The notes under the pieces: generated by a model | Seen by the model: only the letters and a program-made list of their open reading frames with translations | Told to the model about the DNA's origin: nothing | The model's database searches: none | Position numbers and translations under genes: made by a program | Shown: positions 12,295 through 63,593 of the stretch, piece by piece | Layout: every line of letters begins with the position of its first letter | Numbering within the stretch: position 1 is the stretch's first letter | NCBI GenBank assembly: GCA_947176265.1 | Contig: CAMWQA010000001.1 | Span: forward strand, 11,772 to 75,771 | DNA: 64,000 bases | From: an uncultured Clostridia bacterium | Lineage (GTDB): Bacteria; Bacillota; Clostridia; Christensenellales; UBA3700 | Direction: 5' to 3'

Positions 12295-12372
12295 TCGCCA
12301 AAAGCGAATATAACTTTGCCAAAGGCAAAATATAACTCCGACGCAGTCGGAATATAACTGTCGCAAAGCGAC
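12295..12372 (+). repeat. Tandem mini-hairpin array A: four 13-nt palindromes separated by AATATAACT
   Basis: TCGCcaaaaGCGA, TTGCCaaaGGCAA, CCGACgcaGTCGG and GTCGCaaaGCGAC start at 12295, 12316, 12338 and 12360 (22-nt period). The first three are followed by (A)ATATAACT. Confidence 0.85.
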
Positions 12373-43656: not shown

Positions 43657-43662
43657 AACAGT

Positions 43663-43671
43663 ATTATAACA
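43663..43671 (-). promoter_or_regulatory. Extended -10 element placed for a leaderless SH3b-protein mRNA
   Basis: Minus strand reads TGTTATAAT-ACTGTT-ATG(43656), with no SD. Confidence 0.5.
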
Positions 43672-43733
43672 CACTATATTTAAAAATTAAAGCAAAAAAA
43701 TATAGCATAATTAAGAAATATAATAAAGAAAGA

Positions 43734-43762
43734 TTGAAAATCACAGTTAAATATGCTAGAAT
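43734..43762 (+). promoter_or_regulatory. Promoter of the alphaCTD/WG gene
   Basis: TTGAAA(43734-43739)-17 nt-TAGAAT(43757-43762), with a TGc extended -10. Confidence 0.55.
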
Positions 43763-43805
43763 GTATTCGTATAATAATAAGCAATCGGCAAAGTTTAAGG
43801 AATAT

Positions 43806-44777
43806 ATGGCAAAAAACAAGTTTCATTATAAAAACAATAATAAGAAAAAGTTCGATTCTCAAGGCGCGGTACAAAAGTTTTTGGATGCAAATAAGGAAAA
43901 GAGCCAAGACCTCATGCGTCCTATTGAAGAACTGGGACTTTCCGAAGCCACCTACAATGCGCTTAAGATTGGCAAGATAAATATAGTGGCGGATCTTGCG
44001 TGCAGAACTTTCCAGCAGATGTACAAAATCCAGAACATAGGCAAGAAGAATTGCATAGAAATATCCAAGGCAATGGCTAAGTTTGGCGTGGATTTTGCAA
44101 AAGACGACGCTCAAAATAATAATAATGCGTCCGCCGGACAAAATCAACCGCAACGAAATAATCAAAATGCCGATAGAAGAGAAAACAACAATCAAGGCGG
44201 CAAGAATTCTCAACAGTTAAAAGACAATCGCGATAAGTCGCAAAACAACAAGAATAAAAAACAAAAGGGCGAAAACGATTCTCTCAACGAGTATTTGACT
44301 AAGCAATACGCAGGCATGACTTGGGCGGAGATACTTATGGGCAGAAGACAGCGTCCCGTAGTAGAAAAAATCGAAAGACCCCCGCTTACGGAAAAGAGCC
44401 TCATCAAGTTTTGTCGCAAAGGCAAGTGGGGCTATAAGGACTGGAAGGGCAACGTAATCGTTCCGCCGTCTTATGAAGAGGCCTTTGGCTTTTTTGAAGA
44501 GCGAGCTTGCGTAGAAAAGGACGGAAAGTTGGGATATATAGACAGAGAAAACAATCTCGTCATAGATTTCAAATACGATTGCGCGACGTCTTTCAGCGAG
44601 GGACTTGCGTCCGTTACCGTAGGCGAGAAGAGCGGATATATAGATCAGGATGGCAATCAAATCGTCGATTTTATATACGATATAGCCACGCCGTTTTCTG
44701 ACGGCAAAGCAATAGTGAGACAAAACGACCGCTGGGGAGTCTTGAACAGAGATAACTTGAGCGTATTTTGGAGATAA
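43806..44777 (+). CDS. Fusion protein: RpoA alpha-CTD-like HhH domain, N/Q-rich basic linker, then WG (KWG) beta-repeats
   Basis: PIEELGLSEATYNALKIGKINIVADL...IQNIGKKNCIEI aligns with this window's own RpoA CTD. The C-terminus has GKWGYKD/GKLGYID/EKSGYID/DRWGVLN repeats. The start at ATG 43806 (AAGGA upstream) is tentative. Confidence 0.65.
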   Translation: MAKNKFHYKNNNKKKFDSQGAVQKFLDANKEKSQDLMRPIEELGLSEATYNALKIGKINIVADLACRTFQQMYKIQNIGKKNCIEISKAMAKFGVDFAKDDAQNNNNASAGQNQPQRNNQNADRRENNNQGGKNSQQLKDNRDKSQNNKNKKQKGENDSLNEYLTKQYAGMTWAEILMGRRQRPVVEKIERPPLTEKSLIKFCRKGKWGYKDWKGNVIVPPSYEEAFGFFEERACVEKDGKLGYIDRENNLVIDFKYDCATSFSEGLASVTVGEKSGYIDQDGNQIVDFIYDIATPFSDGKAIVRQNDRWGVLNRDNLSVFWR

Positions 44778-44792
44778 AAGGAGGACACCACT

Positions 44793-45179
44793 ATGATGCA
44801 AAGACAGAGATTACTTGAGAATGCATTGCTCGTAATGAAGAATGCGCACGCGCCCTATTCGGGATTTAAAATAGGTTGCGCGGTTATGGGAGAGAGCGGA
44901 AAAATTTACGTAGGTTGCAATATCGAAAACGTAAGCTACGGAGCTACTATTTGCGCGGAACAAGTCGCAATGGGTACGGCTATCGCAAGCAGTGAAAAAG
45001 GATTTTTGGCAATGGCTATAGTCGGCTCGGGAGAGGGTATGCCTTATCCTTGCGGAATAGTCAGACAGTTTATCAAAGAGTTTTGCAACGACCTCGTGAT
45101 ATTCGTGTCCAACAAAAACGGCGACGTAGTAACCACCAACATAAGCGAACTTTATCCCGACAGCTTTGATATAAAATAA
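44793..45179 (+). CDS. cdd: Cytidine deaminase homolog (tetrameric type) with a non-canonical zinc site
   Basis: APYSGFKIGCAV..., CAEQ, PCGIVRQ. The fold motifs are present, but the last Cys ligand is Val and the Arg after CAE is Gln. Confidence 0.8.
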   Translation: MMQRQRLLENALLVMKNAHAPYSGFKIGCAVMGESGKIYVGCNIENVSYGATICAEQVAMGTAIASSEKGFLAMAIVGSGEGMPYPCGIVRQFIKEFCNDLVIFVSNKNGDVVTTNISELYPDSFDIK

Positions 45180-45192
45180 ATCAAAAGTAAAT

Positions 45193-45226
45193 AAAAAACA
45201 AGCCACTTTACGGTGGCTTGTTTTTG
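45193..45226. terminator. Bidirectional intrinsic terminator
   Basis: aaaaaACAAGCCACtttacgGTGGCTTGTtttt. Confidence 0.8.
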
Positions 45227-45242
45227 TATGCGAAAACTGTTG

Positions 45243-46295
45243 TTATTTCATCAAAGCGTTCTTCAAATTATCGCTAATATTCATTTTATCGAGTTTTGAT
45301 TTATCGTATGTAAACCACTGCTCATAGTAGTTGTCGCTTGAACCTTTGAGGCTAAGAATCATATTTGCGTTCCACAAATTTGCGTTGACGTACGTTCTGA
45401 TAAGTCCGCATTCCCAAATCTCTATGGTCAAGTGCTTTTTAGCGTACTCAAATTCTTTGATTGCGCTTATGTCGAGCATATCTTTGACAGAATTTTCAAG
45501 CGTATTGTTTTTGCAGTTGATATCGCATTCAAGACGGTATATGCCTGCGTCTGCGTTGTAGGTCAATTTTCCTGCCGTAATAGGCTTATCGTTGTCGTAA
45601 TTATCCGTAGTAAAGCTCTTGTAACTTTCTCTTGAATTTGTCATTTTCATATACTCGTTGTATGTCATCTTTTTAGCTTTCGGCTTTTTGTAGATTACGG
45701 CGTTTTGGTCAGGGAAATTGACTATAGTATTTTGATTTGTCGATCCCTTATCGGAGAAATAAAAATCTTTACCGTTGGGGGAGTAGACTCTCTTGGTATA
45801 GTTTAGCGCGCTTGACAGTACGCTCAAAATACTGCTGTCGACTTTGCCGTGAGAACCGTCTTTTTTTACGGTATATCCGTCGACGATAAGACCATAGGAG
45901 TCAAAGTAATATGTATCGTTATCAAACACGCGTACTTCGCGAGTTTGCATAGAGCCGACTATCGTACCGCCGTTGATTGTAGCCGTGCCGTAGCCAAAAG
46001 CGCCTGCGGCAAAGAAATCGGTTTCAATTAAATTTTTGTTGGACAGTCTCAAAAGATACTCGATTGAGTCGAGCACGGCTTTGTCTTCAGTTACAGTTTC
46101 GCTCAAGGCGATTTTATCTTTATCTACCGGAGTAGATTTTGCGATTGCTTCTTGCGTAGGCTTGGAAGCCAATCCGTCGAATTCGAGACTTGCTTCAGCA
46201 TTTGTGGGCGTATGTACGCAACCTGCAAATATTGCGGCGATCAACGTCGCGATGACGAGTATAGCCGCGATTATCAATGTCTTTCTTTTTTTCAT
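45243..46295 (-). CDS. Lipoprotein of unknown function
   Basis: MKKRKTLIIAAILVIATLIAAIFAGC contains a lipobox. ATG 46295 lies 6 nt after GGAG. Confidence 0.6.
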   Translation of the reverse strand: MKKRKTLIIAAILVIATLIAAIFAGCVHTPTNAEASLEFDGLASKPTQEAIAKSTPVDKDKIALSETVTEDKAVLDSIEYLLRLSNKNLIETDFFAAGAFGYGTATINGGTIVGSMQTREVRVFDNDTYYFDSYGLIVDGYTVKKDGSHGKVDSSILSVLSSALNYTKRVYSPNGKDFYFSDKGSTNQNTIVNFPDQNAVIYKKPKAKKMTYNEYMKMTNSRESYKSFTTDNYDNDKPITAGKLTYNADAGIYRLECDINCKNNTLENSVKDMLDISAIKEFEYAKKHLTIEIWECGLIRTYVNANLWNANMILSLKGSSDNYYEQWFTYDKSKLDKMNISDNLKNALMK

Positions 46296-46591
46296 AATCA
46301 TCTCCAAAGATATACTTTTATGCGGTATATCACTAAATAAAGTATACATTATATCCCGAGTATATGTCAACCCCCAAAGGTTTTTCCTACGTTCTCGGTT
46401 GGTTTGCAAACGCCAATATTACGCATGATTTTATCAAATTCCCTTAAATTCGTCAAAATTTTTGCAATATATCTAACGGCGGACGAAACTATTCTCTTTG
46501 CGCCAATAATTACTCTACTCAAAAAGTTGTGCTATTAAATAATTTATGATAAAATAATGGCAAAGAAAGACTTTGGGAGTGAAAATCTACT

Positions 46592-47314
46592 TTGGAAATA
46601 GTTTGGAAAATAGTTGCTACGCTTGCGGCTTATTTTGTGGGCGCAATCAATATGGCGACTATTATAGGGGCGATAAAGGGTAAGAATATCAAAAATCTCG
46701 GCAGCGGTAACCCCGGCACTATGAACGTAATGAGAAGTATAGGCAAGGGGTGGGGAGCTTTGACTTTTGCTTTTGACTGCGCAAAAGGCGTGAGTTTTGC
46801 CTTGATTGGCAAGTTTGCAATTGACGGCGGTTCTGTCGATTGGATGTTTATACTAGGCGCGGTAACCGTGATAGGACACGTTTTCCCCGTATACACCAAA
46901 TTCAAAGGCGGAAAGGGAGTAGCCACGACGTTGGGTATGTTTTTGGTTGCGACGCCTATAGTCGGACCTTGCGTATTGCTTGGACTCGTGATATATTTGC
47001 TGCTTTGCAAGATAGGATTTATAGGTTCGTATCTTGCCGTAACCGCATTGACTATTGCCAATTGCATTAAGTACAAACACAGCGTAATAGCAATCGTATG
47101 CTGCTTAATAATATGGTTGCTCGTCATAATAAGACACAAAGACAACGTAAAGAGATTTTTGAAAGGTAAAGAGAATACTCTTTCGCTCGTCGGCAAAAAC
47201 GAGGTAAAAGAAGTCGACGACGGGCAAGAAAATTTAAATAAAGACGGCATAGACGGTCAAGACAGTATGCAAGATACGCAAAATATAGATACCCAAGATA
47301 ATCAGAATAAGTAG
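46592..47314 (+). CDS. plsY: Glycerol-3-phosphate acyltransferase PlsY with an acidic/Q-rich C-terminal tail
   Basis: GSGNPGTMNVMR and KGGKGVAT motifs. TTG start after GGGAGTG. Confidence 0.88.
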   Translation: MEIVWKIVATLAAYFVGAINMATIIGAIKGKNIKNLGSGNPGTMNVMRSIGKGWGALTFAFDCAKGVSFALIGKFAIDGGSVDWMFILGAVTVIGHVFPVYTKFKGGKGVATTLGMFLVATPIVGPCVLLGLVIYLLLCKIGFIGSYLAVTALTIANCIKYKHSVIAIVCCLIIWLLVIIRHKDNVKRFLKGKENTLSLVGKNEVKEVDDGQENLNKDGIDGQDSMQDTQNIDTQDNQNK

Positions 47315-47322
47315 AGGTGGAT

Positions 47323-48414
47323 ATGAAACTTGGAGTTGTAGGACTTCCCAACGTGGGAAAAAGCACGTTATTCAACGCGATTACTCAAGCAGGAGCTGAG
47401 AGCGCCAATTATCCTTTTTGCACGATAGAGCCCAATGTGGGCGTAGTAGCCGTGCCCGATGAGAGATTGGACCTTTTGGCAAAGCTGTACAACAGCAAAA
47501 AGGTTACGCCGACTGCGCTTGAATTCGTCGACATAGCAGGACTTGTCAAGGGCGCGTCCAAGGGCGAGGGATTGGGCAACAAATTCCTTTCGCACATAAG
47601 AGAAGTTGACGCAATAGTGCACGTAGTCAGATGTTTTGACGATACCAATATTACGCACGTAGACGGCAGCGTCAATCCTTTGAGAGATATTGAGACGATC
47701 GAGTTTGAATTGATATTCGCCGATATGGAGAGCGTACAAAAACGCGCTAACAAGGCAAGGACTTCCGCAAAGGGCGGAGATAAAAAGTATCTCGTTGAAG
47801 CAGACCTTATGGACAGGATATACGCCGAGTTGGAGAAGGGCACGCCGGCAAGATTGATAGATATGACCGACGACGAAAAGGAGATTGCAAGAGACTTGTT
47901 TTTGCTTACTTCAAAGCCTGTTATTTACGCAGCCAACGTAGGCGAGGACGACGTGGCTAACGGCGGCAACGATTACGTAACTAAAGTGCAGGAGTTTGCC
48001 AAGGCGCAAGGCGCAAAGACGGTTATGATATGCGCAAAACTTGAAGAAGAACTTGCTGGACTTGACGAAGAAGATAAACAACTTTTCAGAGAAGAATACG
48101 GCATCAAGCAAAGCGGACTTGACCAACTCGTATCGGCTTGCTACGACCTATTGGGACTTATCAGTTATCTTACTGCGGGCGAAAAAGAGACAAGAGCGTG
48201 GACGATTACCAAAGGCACAAAAGCTCCGCAGGCGGCAGGCAAGATTCACAGCGATTTCGAGCGCGGATTTATCAGAGCGGAAATCGTCGATTGGAAGGTG
48301 CTTTTGGAGTGCGGTTCTTACGTTGCCGCAAAGGAAAAGGGCAAAGTGAGAAGCGAAGGTAAAGATTACGTCATCAAGGACGGCGACGTAGTGCTTTTCC
48401 GTTTCAACGTATAA
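47323..48414 (+). CDS. ychF: Ribosome-binding ATPase YchF
   Basis: MKLGVVGLPNVGKSTLFNAIT, C-terminal TGS-like domain. Confidence 0.93.
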   Translation: MKLGVVGLPNVGKSTLFNAITQAGAESANYPFCTIEPNVGVVAVPDERLDLLAKLYNSKKVTPTALEFVDIAGLVKGASKGEGLGNKFLSHIREVDAIVHVVRCFDDTNITHVDGSVNPLRDIETIEFELIFADMESVQKRANKARTSAKGGDKKYLVEADLMDRIYAELEKGTPARLIDMTDDEKEIARDLFLLTSKPVIYAANVGEDDVANGGNDYVTKVQEFAKAQGAKTVMICAKLEEELAGLDEEDKQLFREEYGIKQSGLDQLVSACYDLLGLISYLTAGEKETRAWTITKGTKAPQAAGKIHSDFERGFIRAEIVDWKVLLECGSYVAAKEKGKVRSEGKDYVIKDGDVVLFRFNV

Positions 48415-48430
48415 AAGTTTTGAGGATTTT

Positions 48431-50116
48431 ATGGATTACAAACAGCTTATTATAGACAGCATAAAGTTAGACGGTATAGACAAGCAAGATTTACTTACGC
48501 TTGTTTCCGCGCCCAAAGACAGTTCTATGGGCGACCTTTGCATACCTTGTTTCAAGCTTGCAAAAGAGATGAAAAAACCGCCTATGGTCATTGCGCAGGA
48601 GATTGCAAATTCAGTCGACAAGGGAGATATGATAGAGAGCGTATCTGCAGTAGCCGGCTTTGTCAATTTCAAATTCGACAACGTTAAGTTTGCAAAGCAA
48701 GTTCTTGACGACGTATTGTCAAATGGAGAGAATTACGGCAAAAGTCAAGAGGGAAAAGGCAAGACTATTTGCATAGATTATTCTTCGGTAAATATAGCCA
48801 AGCCATTCCACATGGGACACTTGCTCAACACCGCGCTTGGCGGAGCGATATACCGCATATATACCGCGCTTGGTTATAACGTCGTGGGTATCAATCACTT
48901 GGGCGATTGGGGTACGCAATTTGGCAAGCTAATCGTAGCGTATAAGTTGTGGGGCAACAAGAAAGATATCGAAGAGAGGGGCGTAAGGGCTCTTGTGGAG
49001 ATATACGTCAGATTCCACAAAGAAGAAGAGAATAATCCCGCGCTTGCCGACGAGGCTAGAGCTTGGTTCAAGGCAATTGAGACAGGCAATAAAGAGGCGT
49101 TGGAACTCTTTGAATATTTCAAGGAGATTACCCTCAAAGAAGTCAACAGAATATACGACAGATTGCATATTAAATTCGACAGCTACGCAGGCGAGTCTTT
49201 CTACAACGACAAGATGCAACCCGTACTTGACGAGTTGACGGCAAAGGGACTTTTGCAAGAGAGCGAGGGCGCAAAGGTAGTTATGTTTGACGACGGTATG
49301 TCGCCTTGCCTGCTTCAGCGCTCCGACGGCGCAACTCTTTACGCCACGAGAGATATGGCTGCGGCTTTCTACAGAAAAAACACGTATAACTTTGACAAGT
49401 GTCTTTACGTCGTAGCGTATCAGCAAAATCTTCACTTCCAGCAGATTTTCAAGGTGCTCGAGATGATGGGTTGCGAGTGGTCAAAAGATATGGTACACGT
49501 AGCGCACGGAATGGTATCTTTGGAGAGCGGAGCAATGTCCACTAGAGAGGGCAACGTAGTATTTCTTGAAGACGTTCTCAACAGCGTAGTTGACAAGGCA
49601 AGAGCAGTTATCGAAGAAAAAAATCCCGACCTTGAAGACAAGGACAAAATTGCCGAGCAAATAGGCGTAGGCGCAACGCTTTTCGGCGTGCTCTACAACA
49701 GCAGAATAAAGGATATGGTATTCTCTTTCGACAAGGTACTCAACTTTGAGGGCGAGACTGGACCGTACGTTCAGTATACCTACGCAAGGTGTAACAGTCT
49801 ATTCGACAAGTGCGGAGAGATTGGGCAAGAGATTGATTATACCGGTCTTGACAACGCGTCAAGCAAAGCCATTGTAGCTCTGCTTGACAAATATCCGCAA
49901 GTACTTCAAGAAAGCGCAAAGAAGTACGAGCCTAGCGTAGTCACACGATATGCTATAGACCTTTCGCAAGCTTTTAACAAGTTCTACTTTGAGTGTAAAA
50001 TAAATACAGAAAGGGAAGGGATAAAGAATGCTCGTCTTATGCTGACTAAGGCGGTAAGACAAGTTATTGGCAATGCGCTATCCTTATTAGGTATTGAGAC
50101 ACCACAAAAAATGTGA
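48431..50116 (+). CDS. argS: Arginine--tRNA ligase
   Basis: NIAKPFHMGHL (HIGH-type motif), class I architecture, 561 aa. Confidence 0.93.
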   Translation: MDYKQLIIDSIKLDGIDKQDLLTLVSAPKDSSMGDLCIPCFKLAKEMKKPPMVIAQEIANSVDKGDMIESVSAVAGFVNFKFDNVKFAKQVLDDVLSNGENYGKSQEGKGKTICIDYSSVNIAKPFHMGHLLNTALGGAIYRIYTALGYNVVGINHLGDWGTQFGKLIVAYKLWGNKKDIEERGVRALVEIYVRFHKEEENNPALADEARAWFKAIETGNKEALELFEYFKEITLKEVNRIYDRLHIKFDSYAGESFYNDKMQPVLDELTAKGLLQESEGAKVVMFDDGMSPCLLQRSDGATLYATRDMAAAFYRKNTYNFDKCLYVVAYQQNLHFQQIFKVLEMMGCEWSKDMVHVAHGMVSLESGAMSTREGNVVFLEDVLNSVVDKARAVIEEKNPDLEDKDKIAEQIGVGATLFGVLYNSRIKDMVFSFDKVLNFEGETGPYVQYTYARCNSLFDKCGEIGQEIDYTGLDNASSKAIVALLDKYPQVLQESAKKYEPSVVTRYAIDLSQAFNKFYFECKINTEREGIKNARLMLTKAVRQVIGNALSLLGIETPQKM

Positions 50117-50144
50117 TAACCAATCTCTACTTGTTGCTGTTGAC

Positions 50145-50182
50145 GTCATTCTGAGCGAAACGTAGTGGAGTCGAAGAATCTC
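50145..50182 (+). repeat. Family-1 dispersed repeat, copy e (long spacer)
   Basis: GTCATTCTgagcgaaacgtagtggagtcgaAGAATCTC. Confidence 0.75.
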
Positions 50183-50326
50183 TGATAAATATACCGATTA
50201 TTTAAGTCCCGACTTAATGTAGCGAAGCGTAATTTACATTTGGTCGGGAAGGGCGAAGTCCAACCGCTTAAAATTCACAATACAAACTTTTTACATAAAA
50301 ATCATATAATACCCCTCATCATTTTA

Positions 50327-50375
50327 TTGACATTAATATTTATAATGATATAATGATTGTTAGAAGTCTAACAAT
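50327..50375 (+). promoter_or_regulatory. marR promoter plus palindromic operator candidate
   Basis: TTGACA(50327-50332)-16 nt-TATAAT(50349-50354) with a TGa extended -10. Immediately followed by ATTGTTAGaagtCTAACAAT (50356-50375). Confidence 0.6.
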
Positions 50376-50384
50376 TGGTGGCAA

Positions 50385-50822
50385 ATGGAAAAGACGATAA
50401 GTTTTGAATTGCGTTTTATCAACAATCAGATCAAGAGAAGAATCAACTCTATACCCACGTTGCAGAACAACGACATTAAGGGAATATACGGTCACGTCAT
50501 TGGATTTTTGAGTGAGAATAGCAATAGAGATATCTATCAAAAAGACGTGGAGGAGCATTTGTCGATACGACGTTCAAGTGTGACCAATCTTCTCAATCAA
50601 ATGGAAAAGGCAGGTTTGATTGAGAGGCGCTCGGTGGACGGAGACGGCAGACTTAAGAAAGTTGTGTTGACGCAAAAGTCGATTGACATACACGATTGCA
50701 TAGTCGGCGAATTCAAAAAAATAGAAGTCAAATTGAGAGAGGGAATCAGCGAAGAAGAACTCGACACGCTTTTCCGTCTACTTGACAAAGTCAAGAATAA
50801 CGTCGAAAAGCAACAAATATAA
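50385..50822 (+). CDS. MarR-family transcriptional regulator
   Basis: 145 aa winged helix: DVEEHLSIRRSSVTNLLNQMEKAGLIERR. Confidence 0.85.
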   Translation: MEKTISFELRFINNQIKRRINSIPTLQNNDIKGIYGHVIGFLSENSNRDIYQKDVEEHLSIRRSSVTNLLNQMEKAGLIERRSVDGDGRLKKVVLTQKSIDIHDCIVGEFKKIEVKLREGISEEELDTLFRLLDKVKNNVEKQQI

Positions 50823-50850
50823 TAGATAATAATTATTTAAGGAGATTAAG

Positions 50851-52653
50851 GTGAACACGATTAAGAAATTGATGAAGAGTATCCGACAGTTCAAGGCTGC
50901 GTCGATTTTGTCGCCGGTTTGCGTTGCGCTGGAAGTTGCAATGGAATGTATAATACCGCTATATATGACAGAGATGATAGCCAAGATAAATACGCCCGAC
51001 GTGAAGATCACTGACATATTGTTATACGGCGCAATACTTTTGGTATTGGCGGGAGTTGCGTTGCTTTTCGGCGTACTTGCGGGTAAGTTTGCCGCGACCG
51101 CATCGACAGGCTTTGCCAAAAATCTCAGACAGGATATGTATTACCGTATTCAAGGTTTTGCATTTTCCAACATAGATAAGTTCTCCGCGCCAAGTTTGGT
51201 TACGAGAATGACAACCGACGTGACCAACGTGCAGATGGCGTATATGATGATAGTCAGAGTTGCAGTGCGCGCGCCGTTAATGCTAATATTCTCGCTTGCA
51301 ATGGCGTTCGTTCTCAACGCTAAAGTTGCGTTGATTTTCTTGGCGGTCATACCGGTGCTTGCCATAGGCTTGTTTATTATGTTTAGATTCGTAGACCCGA
51401 TATTCACGCGAGTATTCAAAAAGTACGACGCTATGAACGAGTCCATACAGGAAAATATCAAGGGTATAAGAGTAGTCAAGTCGTACGTAAGAGACGAATA
51501 CGAAGACGAGAAATTCCAGAAGACGTCCAACAACGTGCGTTACGACTTCCTTAAGGGAGAAAAGATAATTGCGCTTTCCGGACCTCTTATGCAATTCTGC
51601 ATGTGGTTTTCCATATTGATGATATGCTTTTTAGTGCCAATGATTGGAGTTAAAGCCGGCATAGGCGCGTCGACAGAAGACAAAGCGTCTGCCGAGATAG
51701 CCAGCGAAATGTCTTCGCTTATCGTGTACGCTACGCAGATATTGTCATCGCTGATGATGCTCAATATGGTAATGATAATGATATCGATAGCCAATACTTC
51801 GTCAAAGCGTATCGTCGAAGTATTGAGCGAAGAGAGCGATTTGCATAATCCCGAAAATCCCGCCTACGAGGTCAAGAACGGCGACGTGCGTTTTGAAGAC
51901 GTCGACTTTAAATACGACGTCAAAGCAGACAGACGCGCGCTCAAAGGCGTAAATCTCGACATTAAGTCGGGCGAAACCGTGGGTATTCTCGGCGGTACGG
52001 GTAGCAGTAAGACGTCGCTTGTCAATCTCATACCGAGACTGTACGACGCAACGAGCGGGCACGTATTCGTCGGCGGACGCAACGTTAAAGAATACGACCT
52101 TGAGACGTTGCGTAACGAAGTCGCGGTAGTCTTGCAGAAGAACGTGCTTTTTTCGGGTACGATAAAGGAGAATTTGCGTTGGGGTAATGCCGACGCAACC
52201 GACGAAGAACTTGAGAGGGTATGCAAGTTGGCGCAGGCGCATGACTTCATAATGGGCTTTCCCGACAAATACGATACGTTTATCGAGCAAGGCGGAACTA
52301 ACGTATCAGGCGGACAAAAGCAGAGACTTTGTATTGCAAGAGCTTTGCTTAAAAAACCAAAGATACTTATTCTTGACGACTCGACTAGCGCGGTAGATAC
52401 CAAAACGGACGCTCTTATTCGCAAAGCGTTTGCAGAAGAGATACCCAATACGACCAAGTTTATAATTGCGCAAAGAGTTGCTTCCGTGCAAGACGCGGAT
52501 AAAATCATCATAATGGACGGCGGCAGCGTTGCAGACGTGGGAACGCACGACGAATTGCTTGCGCGCAACGAGATATATCAAGAGGTATATTACTCTCAAA
52601 ACAAAACCAACAACGACGGAGAGGAGGTAAAGGCAGATGGCGCAGAAGACTAG
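50851..52653 (+). CDS. ABC exporter, fused permease/ATPase (half-transporter 1)
   Basis: Six-TM domain, Walker A GGTGSSKTS, signature VSGGQKQR, Walker B ILILDD. GTG start. Confidence 0.9.
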   Translation: MNTIKKLMKSIRQFKAASILSPVCVALEVAMECIIPLYMTEMIAKINTPDVKITDILLYGAILLVLAGVALLFGVLAGKFAATASTGFAKNLRQDMYYRIQGFAFSNIDKFSAPSLVTRMTTDVTNVQMAYMMIVRVAVRAPLMLIFSLAMAFVLNAKVALIFLAVIPVLAIGLFIMFRFVDPIFTRVFKKYDAMNESIQENIKGIRVVKSYVRDEYEDEKFQKTSNNVRYDFLKGEKIIALSGPLMQFCMWFSILMICFLVPMIGVKAGIGASTEDKASAEIASEMSSLIVYATQILSSLMMLNMVMIMISIANTSSKRIVEVLSEESDLHNPENPAYEVKNGDVRFEDVDFKYDVKADRRALKGVNLDIKSGETVGILGGTGSSKTSLVNLIPRLYDATSGHVFVGGRNVKEYDLETLRNEVAVVLQKNVLFSGTIKENLRWGNADATDEELERVCKLAQAHDFIMGFPDKYDTFIEQGGTNVSGGQKQRLCIARALLKKPKILILDDSTSAVDTKTDALIRKAFAEEIPNTTKFIIAQRVASVQDADKIIIMDGGSVADVGTHDELLARNEIYQEVYYSQNKTNNDGEEVKADGAED

Positions 52654-54550
52654 AAGCATAAAAGGTACGATGCCGATACTAGGCAGACTTATCAAATATA
52701 TGTTCAAGTACTATAAATTGCAGCTTATAGTAGTGTTGATTTGCATTACGCTCAACGCTATGGCGGCAATAAGTTCGTCGATATTTATTGAGAGAATAAC
52801 CAACGACGTCATTATTCCAGGTCTTGAACACGGATGGGACAGCGTAAAAGATACTATGTTTACCATAGTAGCGATAATGGTTGGCATATATATTGTGGGA
52901 CTTATAGCGTCGTTTACCTACAATAGAATAATGGCTCACGTAACGCAGGGTTTTTTGTATCACGTCCGCAACGATATGTTCAAAAAGATGCAGTCGCTTC
53001 CAATCAAGTTTTTTGATACGCATACGCACGGCGATATTATGAGTATATACACCAACGATACCGACGCTATTCGACAGCTCATCTCGCAAAGCGTTCCGCA
53101 GACGTACTCGTCGTTTGTTGCGATAATCACTTTGCTTGTCACAATGTTGGTCTCAAGCGTATGGCTTACGCTCGTAGTACTTGCGGGAGTGTGCTTAATG
53201 TTTGTAGTAATAAAGTTGATTGGCAGCAAGAGCGCAAAATACTTTATGCGTCAGCAAATAGCAATGGGTAAGTCGGAAGGCTTTATTGAAGAGATGATGC
53301 ACGGGCAAAAAGTTGTCAAAGTATTTTGTCACGAAGAAAAGGCAAAGGCAGACTTCGACGTTATCAACGACGGCTTGTTTAAAGACAGCGAAAGAGCCAA
53401 TAAGTACGCAAATATCCTCATGCCTACGCTAGGCAATATAGGCTACGTGCTTTACGTAGTAGTAGCCATAGTGGGCGGAGTACTGTCGCTTGCAGGCGCG
53501 CATAATCTTTCGCTCAAAGGTCTTGCCGCAGAGGGAATAACGATGGGCGCAATCGTGGCCTTCCTGAATATGAGCAGACAGTTTACGTTCAATATATCGC
53601 AAGTATCTACTCAGCTCAACTCCGTTGTAATGGCTACCGCCGGCGCAAGCAGAATTTTCAAATTGTTGGATCAATCTCCCGAGACAGACGAGGGATATGT
53701 TACGCTTGTCAATGCAAAGGAAGAGAACGGACAACTTGTTGAGTGCGAGGAACGTACGGGTATCTGGGCGTGGAAGCATCCGCATAAAGCAGAGGGCACG
53801 ATTACGTATCAAAGACTTACGGGAGATATCGAACTCAACGAAGTAGACTTTGGATACGTTCCCGAGAAGATAGTATTGCACGACGTAACAATACACGCAA
53901 AACGCGGACAAAAGATTGCTTTCGTAGGCGCAACCGGCGCGGGCAAGACTACGATAACCAATCTTATCAACAGATTTTACGATATTGCCGACGGCAAGAT
54001 ACGCTATGACGGTATAAATATAAATAAGATAAAGAAGGGCGACTTGCGCAGATCTTTGGGAATAGTTTTGCAAGATACCAATTTATTTACAGGTACTATT
54101 ATGGATAATATTCGTTACGGTAGACTTGACGCGACGGACGAAGAGTGTATCGCCGCTGCAAAACTTGCCAACGCGCACGACTTTATCACGCGTCTGCCGA
54201 GCGGCTATGAGACTATGCTTACGGGCGACGGCGCTAATCTTTCGCAAGGACAAAAACAGTTGCTTTCTATCGCAAGAGCGGCGGTAGCAGACGCTCCCGT
54301 AATGATTTTGGACGAAGCAACTTCGTCAATTGACACTCGTACCGAAGCGCTCGTTCAGCAAGGTATGGATAGACTTATGGAAGGTAGGACGGTATTCGTT
54401 ATCGCGCACAGACTTTCCACCGTGCAAAATTCCGATATGATTATCGTGCTAGATCACGGTCGTATTATCGAGAGCGGCAATCACGACGAGTTGATTGCGC
54501 AAGGCGGACAGTATTATCAGTTGTATACCGGAGCATTTGAGCTAGAATAA
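52637..54550 (+). CDS. ABC exporter, fused permease/ATPase (half-transporter 2)
   Basis: Walker A GATGAGKTT, signature LSQGQKQ, Walker B MILDEATS. Overlaps the preceding gene by 17 nt. Confidence 0.9.
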   Translation: MAQKTRSIKGTMPILGRLIKYMFKYYKLQLIVVLICITLNAMAAISSSIFIERITNDVIIPGLEHGWDSVKDTMFTIVAIMVGIYIVGLIASFTYNRIMAHVTQGFLYHVRNDMFKKMQSLPIKFFDTHTHGDIMSIYTNDTDAIRQLISQSVPQTYSSFVAIITLLVTMLVSSVWLTLVVLAGVCLMFVVIKLIGSKSAKYFMRQQIAMGKSEGFIEEMMHGQKVVKVFCHEEKAKADFDVINDGLFKDSERANKYANILMPTLGNIGYVLYVVVAIVGGVLSLAGAHNLSLKGLAAEGITMGAIVAFLNMSRQFTFNISQVSTQLNSVVMATAGASRIFKLLDQSPETDEGYVTLVNAKEENGQLVECEERTGIWAWKHPHKAEGTITYQRLTGDIELNEVDFGYVPEKIVLHDVTIHAKRGQKIAFVGATGAGKTTITNLINRFYDIADGKIRYDGININKIKKGDLRRSLGIVLQDTNLFTGTIMDNIRYGRLDATDEECIAAAKLANAHDFITRLPSGYETMLTGDGANLSQGQKQLLSIARAAVADAPVMILDEATSSIDTRTEALVQQGMDRLMEGRTVFVIAHRLSTVQNSDMIIVLDHGRIIESGNHDELIAQGGQYYQLYTGAFELE

Positions 54551-54642
54551 GCCAAAAGCTTATTCTAGCAGTTATATTCCGCCGTTGATGGGGTTATATT
54601 GCCCCTTGGACAGTTATATTATTGCTTCGCAATAGTGAGATT
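54541..54642 (+). repeat. Mini-hairpin array B-left (AGTTATATT orientation), partly degenerate
   Basis: GCTAGAATAAGCcaaaaGCTTATTCTAGC (covers the ABC stop codon) + AGTTATATT; two degenerate units; ATTGCttcGCAAT + AGTGAGATT. Confidence 0.75.
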
Positions 54643-54671
54643 AAAATAGAAGGCAAAAAGCCTTCTATTTT
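54643..54671. terminator. Hairpin/terminator inside the left cassette arm
   Basis: AAAATAGAAGGCaaaaaGCCTTCTATTTT: a 12-bp stem with A/U-rich shoulders. Confidence 0.6.
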
Positions 54672-54713
54672 AGTTACGGATAAGTTATTTAGATTTTATA
54701 AAGAAAACTAATA

Positions 54714-55063
54714 TTAGTTTTCTTTTAGTGTTTTGCAAGAAGAAATTAACATAATTCTTATTGCGCCACAATTATTATTAAGTTTTTTAAAATCATTTTC
54801 AGATATGTAGCCTGTTTCAAATAGAAGTTCCAACCAATACTCGCTTTCATAACATTTTTTAAGGCAATCTCAAACTTGGATATAAAGTCCAACTTGCTTT
54901 GAGCATACTGCGCCTCATAAATATTTGCTCCTATGCTCGTTCCTGAACGAATAAGTTGATTTGCCAAAACGCTTTCAATTTTTGACGAATTTATACTTTT
55001 GCATAAAGTAATAATTTCTTTTGCAAACGCTTTTGACTTTTCTCTCAATACACTATCGCTCAT
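54714..55063 (-). pseudogene. Four-helix-bundle protein gene (23S rRNA IVS protein / PF05635-like), interrupted by a frameshift at an A6 run
   Basis: The zero frame gives ...LANQLIRSGTSIGANIYEAQ...FEIALKN and then nonsense. The -1 frame continues CYESEYWLELLFETGYISENDFKKL...KTLKEN*, which matches the family. The span is 350 nt, one nt short of an open frame. T6 run at 54855-54860 (+ strand). Confidence 0.75.
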
Positions 55064-55082
55064 TACTATTTACCTCAATTAA

Positions 55083-55111
55083 ATTTTATCAACATTAATA
55101 TTCACAGTCAA
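55083..55111 (-). promoter_or_regulatory. Cassette-internal promoter of the four-helix-bundle gene
   Basis: Minus strand reads TTGACT(55111-55106)-17 nt-TAAAAT(55088-55083) with a TGa extended -10. SD GAGGT lies 8 nt before the ATG at 55063. Confidence 0.6.
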
Positions 55112-55139
55112 TAAAAAATTATAATAATTATCCGTAACT

Positions 55140-55168
55140 AAAATAGAAGGCTTTTTGCCTTCTATTTT
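55140..55168. terminator. Hairpin/terminator inside the right cassette arm
   Basis: AAAATAGAAGGCtttttGCCTTCTATTTT, the mirror of 54643-54671. Confidence 0.6.
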
Positions 55169-55177
55169 AATCTCACT

Positions 55178-55259
55178 ATTGCGAAGCAATAATATAACTG
55201 CCCGAAGGGCAATATAACTATTTTCTTGCTTGCAAGAAAATAATATAACTTGCAAGCTC
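55178..55259 (+). repeat. Mini-hairpin array B-right (AATATAACT orientation)
   Basis: ATTGCgaaGCAAT, GCCCgaaGGGC and ATTTTCTTgcttgcAAGAAAAT are each followed by AATATAACT. The last hairpin, GCAAgctctgtTTGC, reaches the thiT stop codon. Confidence 0.8.
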
Positions 55260-55265
55260 TGTTTG

Positions 55266-56267
55266 CTAACTTTCTTCGACGTTATCGTTTTTGCTTATCA
55301 CTTCGCTTTGTTCGGAGTTGCCGACTTCCGCGCTTGCAATGCCGTCGCTCGCAACTCTTGCTCTTTGCTTGTATACCACTTCATTCATAAATGCTTTTGA
55401 CGAGAAGAGTAACATACCTACTGCGAGTACTATTGCGATATCCACGAATACGAAAGAGTTGTACCCAAGGCTATATATGTAGATATTCTGTCCTGCGTCG
55501 TGCGCGTACGCTCCGAATGCGCATACGCCCGAGAGAAAGTGCGCCATAAATCTCAATACGCTTGCCATAATGCCGCCCAGCAACAAAGATACTTGCGGAA
55601 GTTTTTTGAACACGTAAAATTTTGCAAACGCTCCGCTTAGTCCAATTGCAGAAAAGGCGATTGGGTAATCTAGCAAGAATTGCACGGGATGAATAATGTA
55701 CGGGTCTTGAATTGCTTGCAATACGCCGTATATTAAACCTACAAGCAAGCCTTTCTTCACTCCGAAGATATAAGAGAAAAGCATAAGCGGAAGTAGGGAA
55801 GCAAGCGTTACGCTTCCTCCTTGCGGTAATTTAAACAGTCTAACGTAAGACAATGCAAAGCTCATTGCAATGCAGACTGCGCCAAACGCAACGGAGCGAG
55901 AATCAAATTTAAAATTCTCTTTTCTGCCAAGCAAGAAGGTCAAGCCTATTACCGCGCCTATCAATACGACTGCGCTTATATAAAGAGGCGCGTTCTTGAA
56001 GTAAGGGGAGTAGTACCCGTCATTTTTGATATTGTCGACGTAATACTTGCCAATGAGCGAAATGCACACGATCGTGGCAACAATGCAAAGTCCTATGGCA
56101 ACGTAGATACATATACCGATAGTCTTTGGGGCGCGCTTACGCAAATACATTAAAAACATAAATGCAAAAAGCGCAATGAATAGTGCAAAGATAGGCCAGA
56201 AGAGTAGATCGGGCAATTCGTCGCCGCTCGACGTCTTGACAGCCATCAATACAAAGAGGTTGTTCAT
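55266..56267 (-). CDS. thiT: Thiamine transporter ThiT-like ECF S-component, with N- and C-terminal extensions
   Basis: The core GGSVTLASLLPLMLFSYIFGVKKGLLVGLIYGVLQ...HPVQFLLDYPIAF resembles the ThiT/YuaJ family. A TPP riboswitch lies upstream. At 333 aa it is long for an S-component. Confidence 0.7.
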   Translation of the reverse strand: MNNLFVLMAVKTSSGDELPDLLFWPIFALFIALFAFMFLMYLRKRAPKTIGICIYVAIGLCIVATIVCISLIGKYYVDNIKNDGYYSPYFKNAPLYISAVVLIGAVIGLTFLLGRKENFKFDSRSVAFGAVCIAMSFALSYVRLFKLPQGGSVTLASLLPLMLFSYIFGVKKGLLVGLIYGVLQAIQDPYIIHPVQFLLDYPIAFSAIGLSGAFAKFYVFKKLPQVSLLLGGIMASVLRFMAHFLSGVCAFGAYAHDAGQNIYIYSLGYNSFVFVDIAIVLAVGMLLFSSKAFMNEVVYKQRARVASDGIASAEVGNSEQSEVISKNDNVEES

Positions 56268-56296
56268 TTTTGTCTCCTTTTCCGCCGACGAATGAA

Positions 56297-56420
56297 ATAA
56301 AAAGACGTCCCATTAAAAGTGGGGCGCCTATATACTTCCTGCGTTTTACGCTCTTTCGTTCAAGTATTACCTTGTCCGATTCAAGTGGTATAATCTCAGC
56401 CTTTTACAGCACCCACGGCG
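56297..56420 (-). promoter_or_regulatory. TPP (THI-box) riboswitch with a terminator expression platform
   Basis: Minus strand reads GGGTGC...GCTGAGAttatACCActTGAAtCgGAcaaGGTAATActtgaacGAAAGA, then GGCGCCCCActtttaaTGGGACGTC + TTTTTAT. A promoter-like TTGACA sits at 56471-56466. Confidence 0.75.
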
Positions 56421-56493
56421 AATATTTATTTTTTATATATTGAATATATAATATATATTTTAATTTGTCAAATGTTTTTATATATTTTATCAA

Positions 56494-56522
56494 TAAAAAC
56501 GAGTCGCAGTAATCTGCGACTC
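56494..56522 (-). terminator. Intrinsic terminator of the 697-aa lipoprotein gene
   Basis: Minus strand reads GAGTCGCAGattaCTGCGACTC followed by GTTTTTATTG. Confidence 0.75.
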
Positions 56523-56549
56523 GCCGTGTTGTTTTAGCTAAGCTAAATA

Positions 56550-58643
56550 TTAAGCGTTAGCGTCACTAGCATTACCAATCTTGAATTGATTAAATTTGAA
56601 AACTACATCTATTGGGAATGCAATGCCGCCGCCGAAATCAACTGTTTGAGCTTCGCCTGTAAGCGAAGTAGCAGATTTAGCAGTAACGGTTATGCCGTTC
56701 TTGTTTGCCTCGATTTTAGCAGAGACGTTCAATCTTCCTGCGTTGCTGCCAGCTGCTGCCTTACCAGCGTTTGCTGCGTTGATTATAATGTTCTTGATAG
56801 AAGCTTGGAGTACGATACCCGTCTTGTCAGCTACTACGGTTGCGTCCAATGTGGTGTCGCCCAAATCTACTTCTTTTTGCTTGCCGGTCTTCTCGTCGAT
56901 AACTTCAACTTCAACGTCTTCGCCTTTCTCGTTTTTCTGAGTCTCAGTTGCTTTCCAAATGTTGCTAGCTACAGAGTAGTTCTTGAAGTCTACGTCAGCC
57001 AACTTGCCGTCGCAGTTTACGAGGATGGTCAAGTTCTTGATGATTGGAGCAAGAGTCTTCATTAATTTTTGAATATCTATGCCGTCTTTTTTGTCGTCGC
57101 CGGAAGGAGCGCCTGAAAGATCGCCAGATACGTTACCCGATACGTTACCGGATGCATTACCGCTACCTATTTCAGGTTTTGCTTCTTCCTTAGGAAGGAA
57201 TCCCTTGACTATGTCAATAACGCGGCCAAGTTTAACAGTACCGCTTGGGAACATTGCGCCGAGGTCGCCCAACAATGCAAGGTTTGTCAAGTTAACGTTC
57301 AAGTCAACGGTGGTTTCACTTGTATAGATTTTCTTGAGCGAAATGATAAGTTGCTTATCTTCATCTTCTGGATGATCTTTATCCTTAATTTCAATGCTGA
57401 GATAGTCAACTACGTTTGTCAAGATTTTGCTAATCAACGACAATGTCTCGTCAGTATTCTTTGATTTAAAGCTCGTTCCGAGAAGTCCAACAGGGTTGAG
57501 GTCAGCGGCAATATTAACTGTGTAAGTGCCGGTAGGTATACCAAGCTTCTTTTCGCCATTGAGATTCAACGTAACTTCAATAGGTTTCTTAACTTCAAGT
57601 TCGCCGCCTGCAGTGAAGTTGATTGCGTTGATAGCCTTATAAGATGCTGCAGAACCAATTATATATGGTACGGTTACGTCTCCGCCGAATTTGAAATCAA
57701 GACCGAGTCCCAATTCGGTATTCTTATCCAAATTGATACGTACGAAATTAGTTTCGTCAGTTCTTGTTAACTTAAGATCTTTGGTGCCCAAGTTGAGTTT
57801 AGCGTCAACGCCCATGAATTTTGCGTCTTCAAATTTGTCTTTTTCTGCGCCATCCATCTTGAAGTGGAGATCAAGCGTCAAAGATGGGAGAAGGGTCTTG
57901 ATGTCGCTAGTCTTCAAAGCAAGACCAAGTTGTCCGGTGTACTCTTCGATCTCCAAGCCTTCCAACAAATCGTTTGCGTTTTCCAAGACTTGTGCAAGAT
58001 TGAGTCGGAAGAGAACTTCTTTTTTGTCATTTGATTGCCAGGTTTTGCCAAGGCTGAAAACGGTTTGCATCTTCTCAAGCGCGTCGCCAAGTGCGTCGAG
58101 TACGTCGTTGGTAACGCTTTCGTCATCGACAACTACGTTCTCACTCTTCATGACAGACTTGATGCTCAAAGCGTCAACTGCAAATTTTTGTTTGCCAAGG
58201 TCAAGGAAGAGAGTGCCTTCGCCTGTCTTGTAGCCTTCTTCTGTAGACTCGTCAGGTCGTTCAGTGTAATATACGTTCAAAATGTTTGCGTTGTTAGCTT
58301 TTGCGTCAACGATGGACAAGCCAAACGTGGTCTTGTTAGCGTCGTCAGCTTTCAAAGCAACGTTAGCGCCGAATTTAATGCGATAGTCGCATGCCGCGTC
58401 GCCGTACTTAGCAGCTACTCTAAGCTCTGCGCCCATTTTGATCGAGCTTACATCCTTACCATCTGAAGTGTTGTAGATAGCATCGTTTAATGCTTCCGAT
58501 AGTGGTGTCGCCATTTTACTGTATCCCGCAGGTGGGGTGTCTTTGTCTTCGTCTTTTGGACCGCAACCTACCAAAGCGGTAAGAGCAAGAGTAAGAACCA
58601 TCACAAGGATCAACAAAGAAATGACTAGTTTCTTCTTGTTCAT
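56550..58643 (-). CDS. Large lipoprotein of unknown function
   Basis: MNKKKLVISLLILVMVLTLALTALVGC contains a lipobox. Strong SD (TAGGAGG). Internal GSGNASGNVSGNVSGDLSG linker. I recognise no family motif. Confidence 0.6.
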   Translation of the reverse strand: MNKKKLVISLLILVMVLTLALTALVGCGPKDEDKDTPPAGYSKMATPLSEALNDAIYNTSDGKDVSSIKMGAELRVAAKYGDAACDYRIKFGANVALKADDANKTTFGLSIVDAKANNANILNVYYTERPDESTEEGYKTGEGTLFLDLGKQKFAVDALSIKSVMKSENVVVDDESVTNDVLDALGDALEKMQTVFSLGKTWQSNDKKEVLFRLNLAQVLENANDLLEGLEIEEYTGQLGLALKTSDIKTLLPSLTLDLHFKMDGAEKDKFEDAKFMGVDAKLNLGTKDLKLTRTDETNFVRINLDKNTELGLGLDFKFGGDVTVPYIIGSAASYKAINAINFTAGGELEVKKPIEVTLNLNGEKKLGIPTGTYTVNIAADLNPVGLLGTSFKSKNTDETLSLISKILTNVVDYLSIEIKDKDHPEDEDKQLIISLKKIYTSETTVDLNVNLTNLALLGDLGAMFPSGTVKLGRVIDIVKGFLPKEEAKPEIGSGNASGNVSGNVSGDLSGAPSGDDKKDGIDIQKLMKTLAPIIKNLTILVNCDGKLADVDFKNYSVASNIWKATETQKNEKGEDVEVEVIDEKTGKQKEVDLGDTTLDATVVADKTGIVLQASIKNIIINAANAGKAAAGSNAGRLNVSAKIEANKNGITVTAKSATSLTGEAQTVDFGGGIAFPIDVVFKFNQFKIGNASDANA

Positions 58644-63312: not shown

Positions 63313-63469
63313 GATTATTGCTGAGCAACAGTGATAATATAATAAGTGGACGAGCAGTCCTCTGCGCGGACAGTTATATTTTTGCCTATGGCAAAAGTTA
63401 TATTGCCACTGCGTGGCAGTTATATACGCCTTCGGCGAGTTATATCGTCGCTATGCGACGGTTAAGGAT
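63308..63469 (+). repeat. Mini-hairpin array C (AGTTATAT orientation)
   Basis: AGTGAGATT (contains the helicase stop TGA); TTGCtgaGCAA; GGACgagcaGTCC/GTCCtctgcgcGGAC; TTTGCCtatGGCAAA; GCCACtgcGTGGC; CGCCttcGGCG; CGTCGCtatGCGACG. From the third hairpin through the sixth, each is followed by AGTTATAT(T). Confidence 0.85.
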
Positions 63470-63484
63470 ACTTTATTAAGATTA

Positions 63485-63510
63485 GATTCTTCGACTTCGC
63501 TCAGAATGAC
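63485..63510 (-). repeat. Family-1 dispersed repeat, copy g
   Basis: The reverse complement reads GTCATTCTgagcgaagtcgaAGAATC. Confidence 0.75.
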
Positions 63511-63593
63511 AGAAAAACCACTCTCGTTTGGCGAGAAGGGAGATAGGCAAAGGATAAAATAGTAGATTTTGCGTCAAGGCGGTGTTGGACGAG

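Follow-up and report, generated by a model that had tools for sequence, protein, structure and literature searches.

The stretch analysed here (the window) comprises 64,000 nucleotides of contig CAMWQA010000001.1 from an uncultured Clostridia bacterium. At 54611–55200, between the convergent genes of an ABC exporter and ThiT, it contains a gene for a four-helix-bundle (4HB) protein enclosed by two inverted arms. We favour reading this feature as a probably decaying member of a family of small mobile-type intergenic cassettes in gut Clostridia, which combine a 4HB gene with arrays of mini-hairpins similar to the Gut-1 RNA. Judged from sequence comparisons, the signature of the family is a PF05635 4HB gene with its own promoter and two inverted half-arrays of mini-hairpins, separated by the conserved 9-mer AGTKNTATT in one half and AATANMACT in the other. 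A preliminary description of this DNA had treated the mini-hairpins as a separate finding. They are instead the defining partner of the 4HB gene family and divergent Gut-1 motifs.

Two long-standing orphans are thereby physically coupled: the protein family of the 23S rRNA intervening sequences (IVSs) and the Gut-1 RNA motif. To our knowledge, the IVS protein family comprises thousands of genes with a function known only for Avd, the accessory protein of diversity-generating retroelements (DGRs), and we know of no explanation for the origin and mobility of IVSs since about 1990. The coupled modules offer a concrete and abundant non-rRNA model for IVS-like movement and for the binding target of 4HB proteins. 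In the literature searched, no prior description of a link between PF05635, Gut-1 and insertion into terminator loops was found.

The 4HB gene and its hairpin arrays

The 4HB open reading frame (ORF) is located on the minus strand at 54714–55063 and is distributed over two frames, as defined by profile matches and a homologue alignment. The two parts, 55063–54758 and 54833–54714, match PF05635 with E-values of 3.2e-13 and 0.011. The frameshift noticed earlier is a single-base deletion in the A-run 54854–54860, so the reading frame is not intact. The minus strand reads A_AAA_AAT at this site, and homologues read AAA GAA TGT. Restoring the base yields a protein of 116 amino acids that aligns without gaps to 28 homologues and keeps R39, S43, N47 and E50. 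According to its profile scores, the repaired ORF is a clear member of the family PF05635/TIGR02436 (“23S rRNA IVS protein”), with 89.6 bits for PF05635 (E 1.9e-25, cut-off 33.8) and 102.3 bits for TIGR02436 (E 1.6e-29, cut-off 24). The former search had been proposed as a check in the preliminary description. A pentameric 4HB fold is predicted from sequence homology to the solved structure PDB 2RLD (E 1.1e-38), an entry with five chains. A −1 frame at A_AAA_AAT restores the conserved LKKCYESEYW. The simpler reading of the frameshift is a plain pseudogene. Because the site reads as a classical slippery heptamer, programmed or transcriptional −1 slippage could also yield the full protein. An in-frame stop is present in L025, which also belongs to the family.

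The minus-strand expression unit was described correctly before. A promoter-like TTGACT-17-TG-n-TAAAAT (55111–55083, minus strand) has 10 of 12 matches and a TG before the −10 box. A Shine-Dalgarno sequence GAGGT (55076–55072, minus strand) is located upstream of the ATG at 55063, which opens the ORF of about 116 codons.

For the family, one genome per species was scanned. The scan gave 569 confirmed relatives, and the best 80 of the 569 were used as homologue loci. In 77 of the 80 species, an array cluster lies no more than 330 nt upstream of the 4HB gene. The upstream zone of 25.8 kb contains 162 array clusters, compared with 9 in the other 474 kb of the same loci, which is a 331-fold density. 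Almost all 80 loci share a conserved upstream region of about 250 nt. It comprises a long covarying hairpin, three to four units of AGTKNTATT and a mini-hairpin, a centre, three to four units of a mini-hairpin and AATANMACT, and the promoter, whose −35 box abuts the last 9-mer. Stems of at least 4 bp form between the 9-mers in 57% of the units in the 5′ half and in 80% of those in the 3′ half, versus 2%–3% in shuffled sequences. The spacers between the 9-mers comprise 92 distinct sequences in the 5′ half and 113 in the 3′ half. An alignment of 21 sequences revealed compensatory changes in 17 of 47 predicted pairs, the innermost 9-mer pair included. Loop sequences of the two halves mirror each other (TTC/TAC versus GAA/GCA/GTAA). 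By these alignments, the arrays are a series of short hairpins with a conserved linker and covariation-backed stems, in the manner of Gut-1.

Two other arrangements of the 9-mers found no support. For a nested pairing of all 5′ with all 3′ 9-mers, covariation was restricted to the innermost pair (columns 136/174, UA:8, GC:8), and the outer ones mismatch in their order. Helically phased binding sites on double-stranded DNA do not agree with unit lengths of 16–26 nt. In a folded-strand mismatch test, G·T and A·C mismatches numbered 10 versus 3 in the 3′ half and 0 versus 2 in the 5′ half, and 9 U·G were counted in the left-end hairpin. These counts lean weakly towards the 4HB-sense strand as the folded strand.

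The comparison with Gut-1 used the Rfam model RF01706, which has a gathering score of 50 bits. Both window arrays align end-to-end to the model below this score, the right array with 43.4 bits (E 6e-7) and the left with 35.6 bits (E 5.9e-5). By the Rfam threshold they are not members, and their alignments identify them as divergent Gut-1 relatives. Typical 4HB loci gave Gut-1 matches in seven of seven cases (34.7–45.5 bits). One array of L017 reached 55.3 bits, above the gathering score. The 4HB-sense strand carries all seven typical-locus matches as well as the strongest match of each searched locus; the 3′ half-array of L017 has an additional match of 34.8 bits on the opposite strand. Gut-1 and the arrays share at least three short covarying hairpins, a conserved single-stranded linker and a source in Clostridia of gut metagenomes. 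They differ in the linker, which is AGUUAUAUU in the window and GUGAAAU in Gut-1. Arrays of the window type also differ by their two inverted halves, which are tied to the 4HB gene and to the element ends. In the accessible text of Weinberg et al. (2010; PMC2864571), Gut-1 is an orphan small RNA present only in human-gut sequence, and neither this text nor the searchable supplement files give a gene link for it.

In some elements, an array seems to be present at each of the two ends. A second array is located downstream of the 4HB gene or its cargo and before an unrelated gene in L017 (4888–4963, the 55.3-bit copy) and in L019 (1954–2228). L005 also has a right-end array.

Contigs often end near the gene: at least 17 of the 80 end less than 500 nt from it, seven of them within about 150 nt (e.g., L006, L020, L026, L034, L046, L050 and L071). 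These frequent ends agree with an element whose many copies or hairpins interrupt short-read assembly. For annotation, the family would account for recurrent contig breaks and for unannotated structured spacers in metagenome-assembled genomes (MAGs) of gut Clostridia, and for the interruption of some of their terminators by inserts of 0.3–2 kb.

Probable movement of the modules

Nucleotide identity between species, at 83%–98%, is confined to the module block, and the flanks are unrelated. The shared block spans from about 250 nt upstream of the gene to 25–740 nt downstream. Family modules are found either in the loop of an intrinsic terminator of the host or immediately downstream of such a terminator. 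Split host terminators were found in 11 of the 80 loci: an A-tract/stem half and a stem/T-tract half flank the elements in L003, L004, L005, L008, L010, L012, L014, L053, L054, L059 and L077, with matches of up to 16/16 (L077). The halves are AAAAGCCACCGC and GCGGTGGCTTTT in L004, and AAAAAAGTCCGG and CCGGACTTTTTT in L010. At their ends, the elements have inverted repeats of about 22 nt that match imperfectly and contain the core TAGGGATT or TAAGGAT. Elements have a size of 810–1985 bp. The smallest encode the 4HB protein alone, and larger ones add a co-directional cargo ORF for a SAM-methyltransferase-like or a small Cys-rich protein. Gene-less copies of 317–318 bp in L125 and L195 have the same ends and are again flanked by the halves of a split terminator. 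L151 has lost an internal part but retains a promoter remnant, and L126 is a tandem pair. In a tRNA subgroup, a left-end hairpin that may be a host terminator or part of the element precedes the array and starts 1–2 nt past the CCA of different tRNA genes. With terminal inverted repeats, sharp boundaries and unrelated contexts, family members resemble miniature inverted-repeat transposable elements (MITEs). These alignments suggest that the family moves as a unit.

The module can carry cargo, because eight methyltransferase-like and six Cys-rich ORFs ride in elements. The methyltransferase-like ORF of 198 amino acids, with a start overlapping the 4HB stop (ATGA), was observed in L009–L012, L014, L022, L024 and L053 (about 4350–4946). 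The Cys-rich ORFs of the six other elements have 84–99 amino acids.

The modules placed 1–2 nt past a tRNA CCA are those of L015, L017, L018, L023, L028, L031, L033, L067 and L076. The L015 module adjoins a 6S RNA gene. A faecal scaffold labelled phage, L218 (MT835815), has the layout tRNA, terminator, array and 4HB gene. In phage and plasmid collections, the only finds were distant homologues on plasmids and two faecal “phage” scaffolds, both unverified.

At the locus of the window, ThiT orthologues show three states: empty, filled in the other orientation, and arrays without the 4HB gene. Empty sites have neither 4HB gene nor arrays in an ABC/thiT spacer of 213 nt (L088/L089, ThiT 87% identity), 317 nt (L090/L091, 81%) or 114 nt (L092/L093, 79%). 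The site in L092 has a single terminator hairpin resembling T1, the hairpin in the left arm of the window copy. Filled sites are those of the window, L084–L087 and L216. The closest 4HB homologues, P0001 and P0002 (76%–77% identity), are found at the same locus but co-directional with the ABC gene (L084–L087). In L216 (ThiT 81%), a near-identical thiT-side array and terminator are followed by AGCTACGGATAA and then by the 3′ end of a reversed 4HB gene. The ThiT protein of L217 is identical to that of L216, and this site differs: arrays are present and the 4HB gene is absent within the available 335 nt. The search for empty sites proposed in the preliminary description thus revealed a presence/absence polymorphism of the cassette at the orthologous ABC/thiT site.

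Blastn showed the core of the window copy inverted relative to three relatives (those with P0001 and P0002, and L216). The arms in L084 are imperfect, with 27 nt at 89% and 28 nt at 82%, as are those in L087 with 48 nt at 85%. The enclosed segment is about 445 nt long in both, and the sequences of the two terminators are not the same. Given these locus states and imperfect arms, the ancestral layout in the lineage is the hairpin-bounded one, the insertion is polymorphic, and the orientation and perfect arms of the window copy are derived. Since the three relatives carry the opposite orientation with diverged arms, the perfect 73-nt arms of the window copy are probably the result of a recent inversion of the 444-bp core with gene conversion between ancestrally imperfect arms. 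The inversion breakpoint would be at the ACGGATAA motif. The preliminary description had considered duplication or gene conversion, or selection on the stem, for the perfect arms; the relatives favour gene conversion with inversion and make stem selection the less favoured part. It had also proposed a hairpin-bounded, possibly mobile relative of IVSs. This proposal finds partial support. The layout is kept in L084 and L087 and the family is mobile-like, but the family as such does not have the long perfect stem. As a family trait, a long flanking inverted repeat was rejected: in the 80 best loci, exact repeats do not exceed 16 nt and the longest imperfect one has 38 nt at 87%.

The terminators of L216 (4060–4090) and L217 (3230–3265) share the outer stem AAAAGAGA/TCTCTTTT and differ in their apical parts. 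Hairpin apices appear to be the place of sequence exchange.

Several observations weigh against a mobile cassette of gene and arrays. No target-site duplication was recognised; the junctions show 2–4 T-rich bases on both sides. Pfam annotations of the element and of the genes within about 5 kb contain no transposase, recombinase or reverse transcriptase, and we know of no catalytic activity of a 4HB protein. The window copy is without split-terminator flanks, and its insertion history is not reconstructable because its terminators are complete and inside the arrays. The call of its orientation hangs on one assembly across the exact repeat. Arrays also occur alone. The window has gene-less arrays at 12306–12372 and 63372–63447. 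A metagenome scan with AGTTATATT three times as query returned 120 results, mostly unrelated tandem repeats, and 14 of the 120 were hairpin-type arrays. None of the 14, about 10 of them with room for it, had a 4HB gene nearby by six-frame hmmsearch and tblastn. Because arrays occur without the gene, they could be an independent repeat family merely accompanied by it.

In this case, the arrays would be a host or MITE-like repeat of 3′ or 5′ untranslated regions (UTRs), acting as a stabiliser or terminator, and the 4HB gene a passenger that landed nearby. The gene-less arrays in the glgC/D-glgA spacer, after the DEAD-box helicase gene, in L217 and in 14 of 14 metagenome cases are in line with this explanation. 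It is nevertheless unlikely. Across species, arrays and gene seem to travel together in a single block that has common ends, and the 331-fold enrichment places the arrays beside the gene. Copies without the gene retain the ends and resemble internal deletions, L151 with its promoter remnant among them.

The gene-less array at 12306–12372 consists of three AATATAACT units with covarying mini-hairpins. It is located between a glucose-1-phosphate adenylyltransferase-like gene and a glycogen/starch synthase gene (glgC/D-glgA), directly before the Shine-Dalgarno sequence of the synthase, with the Gut-1 sense strand opposite to the operon. The half-array at 63372–63447, downstream of the DEAD-box helicase gene, has four AGTTATAT(T) units and ends in a centre-like GTTAAGGAT, after which a different repeat interrupts.

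The window copy and competing readings

The arms of the window copy, 54611–54683 and 55128–55200, are exact reverse complements at 73 of 73 positions and enclose 444 bp. A base-by-base comparison thus agreed with the preliminary description. An imperfect complementarity extends over 105 nt at 91% (54593–54697 and 55114–55218). A 34-nt piece of the arm has two sites only within the 64-kb window, one in each arm, with 0 expected in shuffles.

From outside inwards, an arm consists of mini-hairpin units separated by AGTTATATT, the variant 9-mer AGTGAGAT, a T1-type hairpin and GTTACGGATAA. The left Gut-1-like array (54569–54646, plus strand) has (A)GTTATATT between its units and is sense in the 3′ UTR of the ABC gene. 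The right one (55165–55251, minus strand) is sense in the 3′ UTR of thiT and near-identical in L216. The 4HB gene is located between two half-arrays that both end with a copy of a terminator-like hairpin. T1 (54642–54672) is TAAAATAGAAGGC-AAAAA-GCCTTCTATTTTA, with an A-tract, a GC core and a T-tract. The TAAAATAGAAGGC-N5-GCCTTCTATTTTA hairpin is present in both arms, as claimed before for one hairpin per arm; the right copy, T1′ (55139–55169), is the putative thiT terminator. From its sequence, T1 would be a bidirectional terminator, for the ABC gene on the plus strand and for the 4HB gene on the minus strand. A reading of the two terminators as halves of one split ancestral terminator was discarded, both hairpins being complete. 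Because either transcript meets the same 73-nt module, the ABC exporter gene and the convergent thiT gene are identical at their 3′ ends. Stacked hairpins and terminators would insulate the insertion, and both neighbour genes would still terminate.

The innermost repeat, the 11-nt GTTACGGATAA at 54673–54683, pairs with 55128–55138 and marks the inversion breakpoint relative to L216. It is the one part of the window copy that resembles, by eye, the core TAAGGAT/TAGGGAT of the family terminal repeats. The outer boundaries of the module are a 12-bp hairpin GCTAGAATAAGC-CAAAA-GCTTATTCTAGC on the left, which includes the stop codon of the ABC exporter (54541–54569, plus strand), and a small hairpin abutting the thiT stop codon on the right (55252–55266, plus strand).

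The 5′ half of the left boundary hairpin, with 12–14 bp, is formed by the last codons and the stop of the ABC exporter gene (window 54541–54569; L084 1537–1562; L087 327–355). Its 3′ half co-varies with the coding end in the three species, CTAG/CTAG versus TTGG/CCAA.

A transcript with both arms is predicted to form a stem of about 95 bp, if such a transcript exists. In an IVS-like RNA module, read-through transcripts would form this duplex and RNase III would excise the 4HB mRNA. Long perfect double-stranded RNA is a substrate of RNase III, and the full-length minus-strand transcript is predicted to fold with the entire arm paired (−251 kcal/mol, z = −16). IVSs with a protein of the same family are bounded by a 28-bp stem and cut by RNase III (PMC4990558). 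The anatomy of the window copy makes such processing improbable. A transcript with both arms needs read-through because each arm has its own terminator. The promoter is at the inner edge of the right arm and the cassette transcript would end at the left hairpin, and hence normal transcripts would hold one arm. Local hairpins compete with the long stem. The arms of relatives are imperfect with 82%–89% identity, the 80 other loci have no long arms, and an rRNA context is absent. Scans of the window gave no Rfam family at its gathering score, no rRNA match and no tRNA. The earlier statement on rRNA therefore applies to the window; the one on reverse transcriptase holds for the genes within about 5 kb.

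The orientation difference also suggests an inverton, in which the 73-bp repeats would be recombination sites and the 444-bp core would flip within the population. Like an inverton, the copy has inverted repeats around a promoter-bearing segment of about 0.4 kb, and relatives show both orientations (opposite in L084–L087 and L216). The breakpoint coincides with the conserved ACGGATAA, and an independent contig (L002) breaks inside the arm. Unlike invertons, it has no recombinase domain in the genes within about 5 kb, its arms are much longer than typical sites, and the inverted unit is self-contained. Because the core holds promoter, gene and flanking terminators together, flipping would have no obvious regulatory output. 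Orientation differences were seen between genomes only, and the diverged arms of relatives argue against frequent exchange. An inverton is thus a quite improbable explanation.

The window is 100% identical to contig JAIDYS010000073.1 of GCA_029058005.1 over 42637–56572, and its sequence rests on one MAG assembly. From a second sample, contig L002 reaches 34 nt into the exact left arm before it breaks off at window position 54644. A spurious palindromic join is very improbable: the single MAG source and an exact repeat longer than common k-mers make the inner orientation ambiguous in a de Bruijn graph, but both flanks are syntenic with relatives, the repeat continues imperfectly past its exact part, contigs of other samples have the same organisation, in which imperfect arms surround about 445 nt, and L002 confirms the left junction.

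Known systems and a possible role of the 4HB protein

The decaying mobile cassette preferred here shares features with several known systems. The 23S rRNA IVSs of Coxiella, Leptospira and Brucella likewise encode an S23p/PF05635 protein in an ORF of about 0.4 kb inside complementary termini. In the window copy, complementary termini form a long stem around the ORF, as in IVSs. IVSs occupy the apex of a stable host hairpin, which is here true of the family members in terminator loops. Both have a sporadic distribution that resembles horizontal transfer, and ORF decay occurs in both (PMC4990558). The host hairpins differ: they are terminators or intergenic hairpins for the cassette family and not the rRNA helices 25 or 45. 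The cassette also has a sigma-70-like promoter and mini-hairpin arrays, the latter undescribed for IVSs. It is not an rRNA IVS because the window holds no rRNA.

The DGR accessory protein Avd is a homologous, positively charged pentameric 4HB barrel that binds a stem-loop beside its own gene. A DGR differs by its reverse transcriptase and its pair of template and variable repeats, neither of which is near the cassette, and the array is not a DGR spacer RNA. In the search for DGR components, the neighbouring genes encoded MarR, ABC, ThiT or MFS proteins or had no domain, and 53500–56300 contained no long direct repeat. The cassette is not a DGR.

MITEs, mobile insertion cassettes and the repetitive extragenic palindromes with their bacterial interspersed mosaic elements (REP/BIME) have in common with the family terminal inverted repeats, no internal transposase, gene-less derivatives, an intergenic location and insertion into hairpin loops. 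IS1397 and ISKpn1 are insertion sequences that target the loops of palindromes. The family differs from MITEs by the lack of a recognisable target duplication, by a 4HB protein as the sole encoded protein of the smallest elements, and by a covarying multi-hairpin array unlike simple MITE ends.

A function of the 4HB protein may be deduced by analogy with Avd. In the Avd pentamer, all five protomers grip an 11-bp stem-loop encoded beside its gene (bioRxiv 10.1101/2023.10.23.563531). The 4HB protein of the cassette may similarly bind the hairpin array, as RNA or as single-stranded DNA. If so, the element would encode the factor for its own maintenance or mobility. The IVS ORF as a component of mobility is an older proposal (cited in PMC4990558). 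We infer such a role in mobility or hairpin binding only from this analogy and this proposal. A wider proposal is tentative and rather doubtful: PF05635 proteins and Gut-1-type arrays might represent an unrecognised class of mobile elements without a canonical transposase. The 4HB pentamer would recognise its own array and direct or stabilise insertion into the apical loops of host hairpins, i.e., terminators or, for IVSs, the rRNA helices 25 and 45. If true, this would explain the orphan Gut-1, the function of IVS proteins and the spread of IVSs together.

Other short intergenic repeats were observed as well. They include GATTCTTCGACTTCGCTCAGAATGACA-type palindromes and units containing CCCCTNAAGGGGA, at window 63480–63530, in L090 (4507–4865), in the tail of L094, and downstream of thiT in L215 and L217. 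Small insertions seem to be especially frequent in the thiT/ABC spacer.

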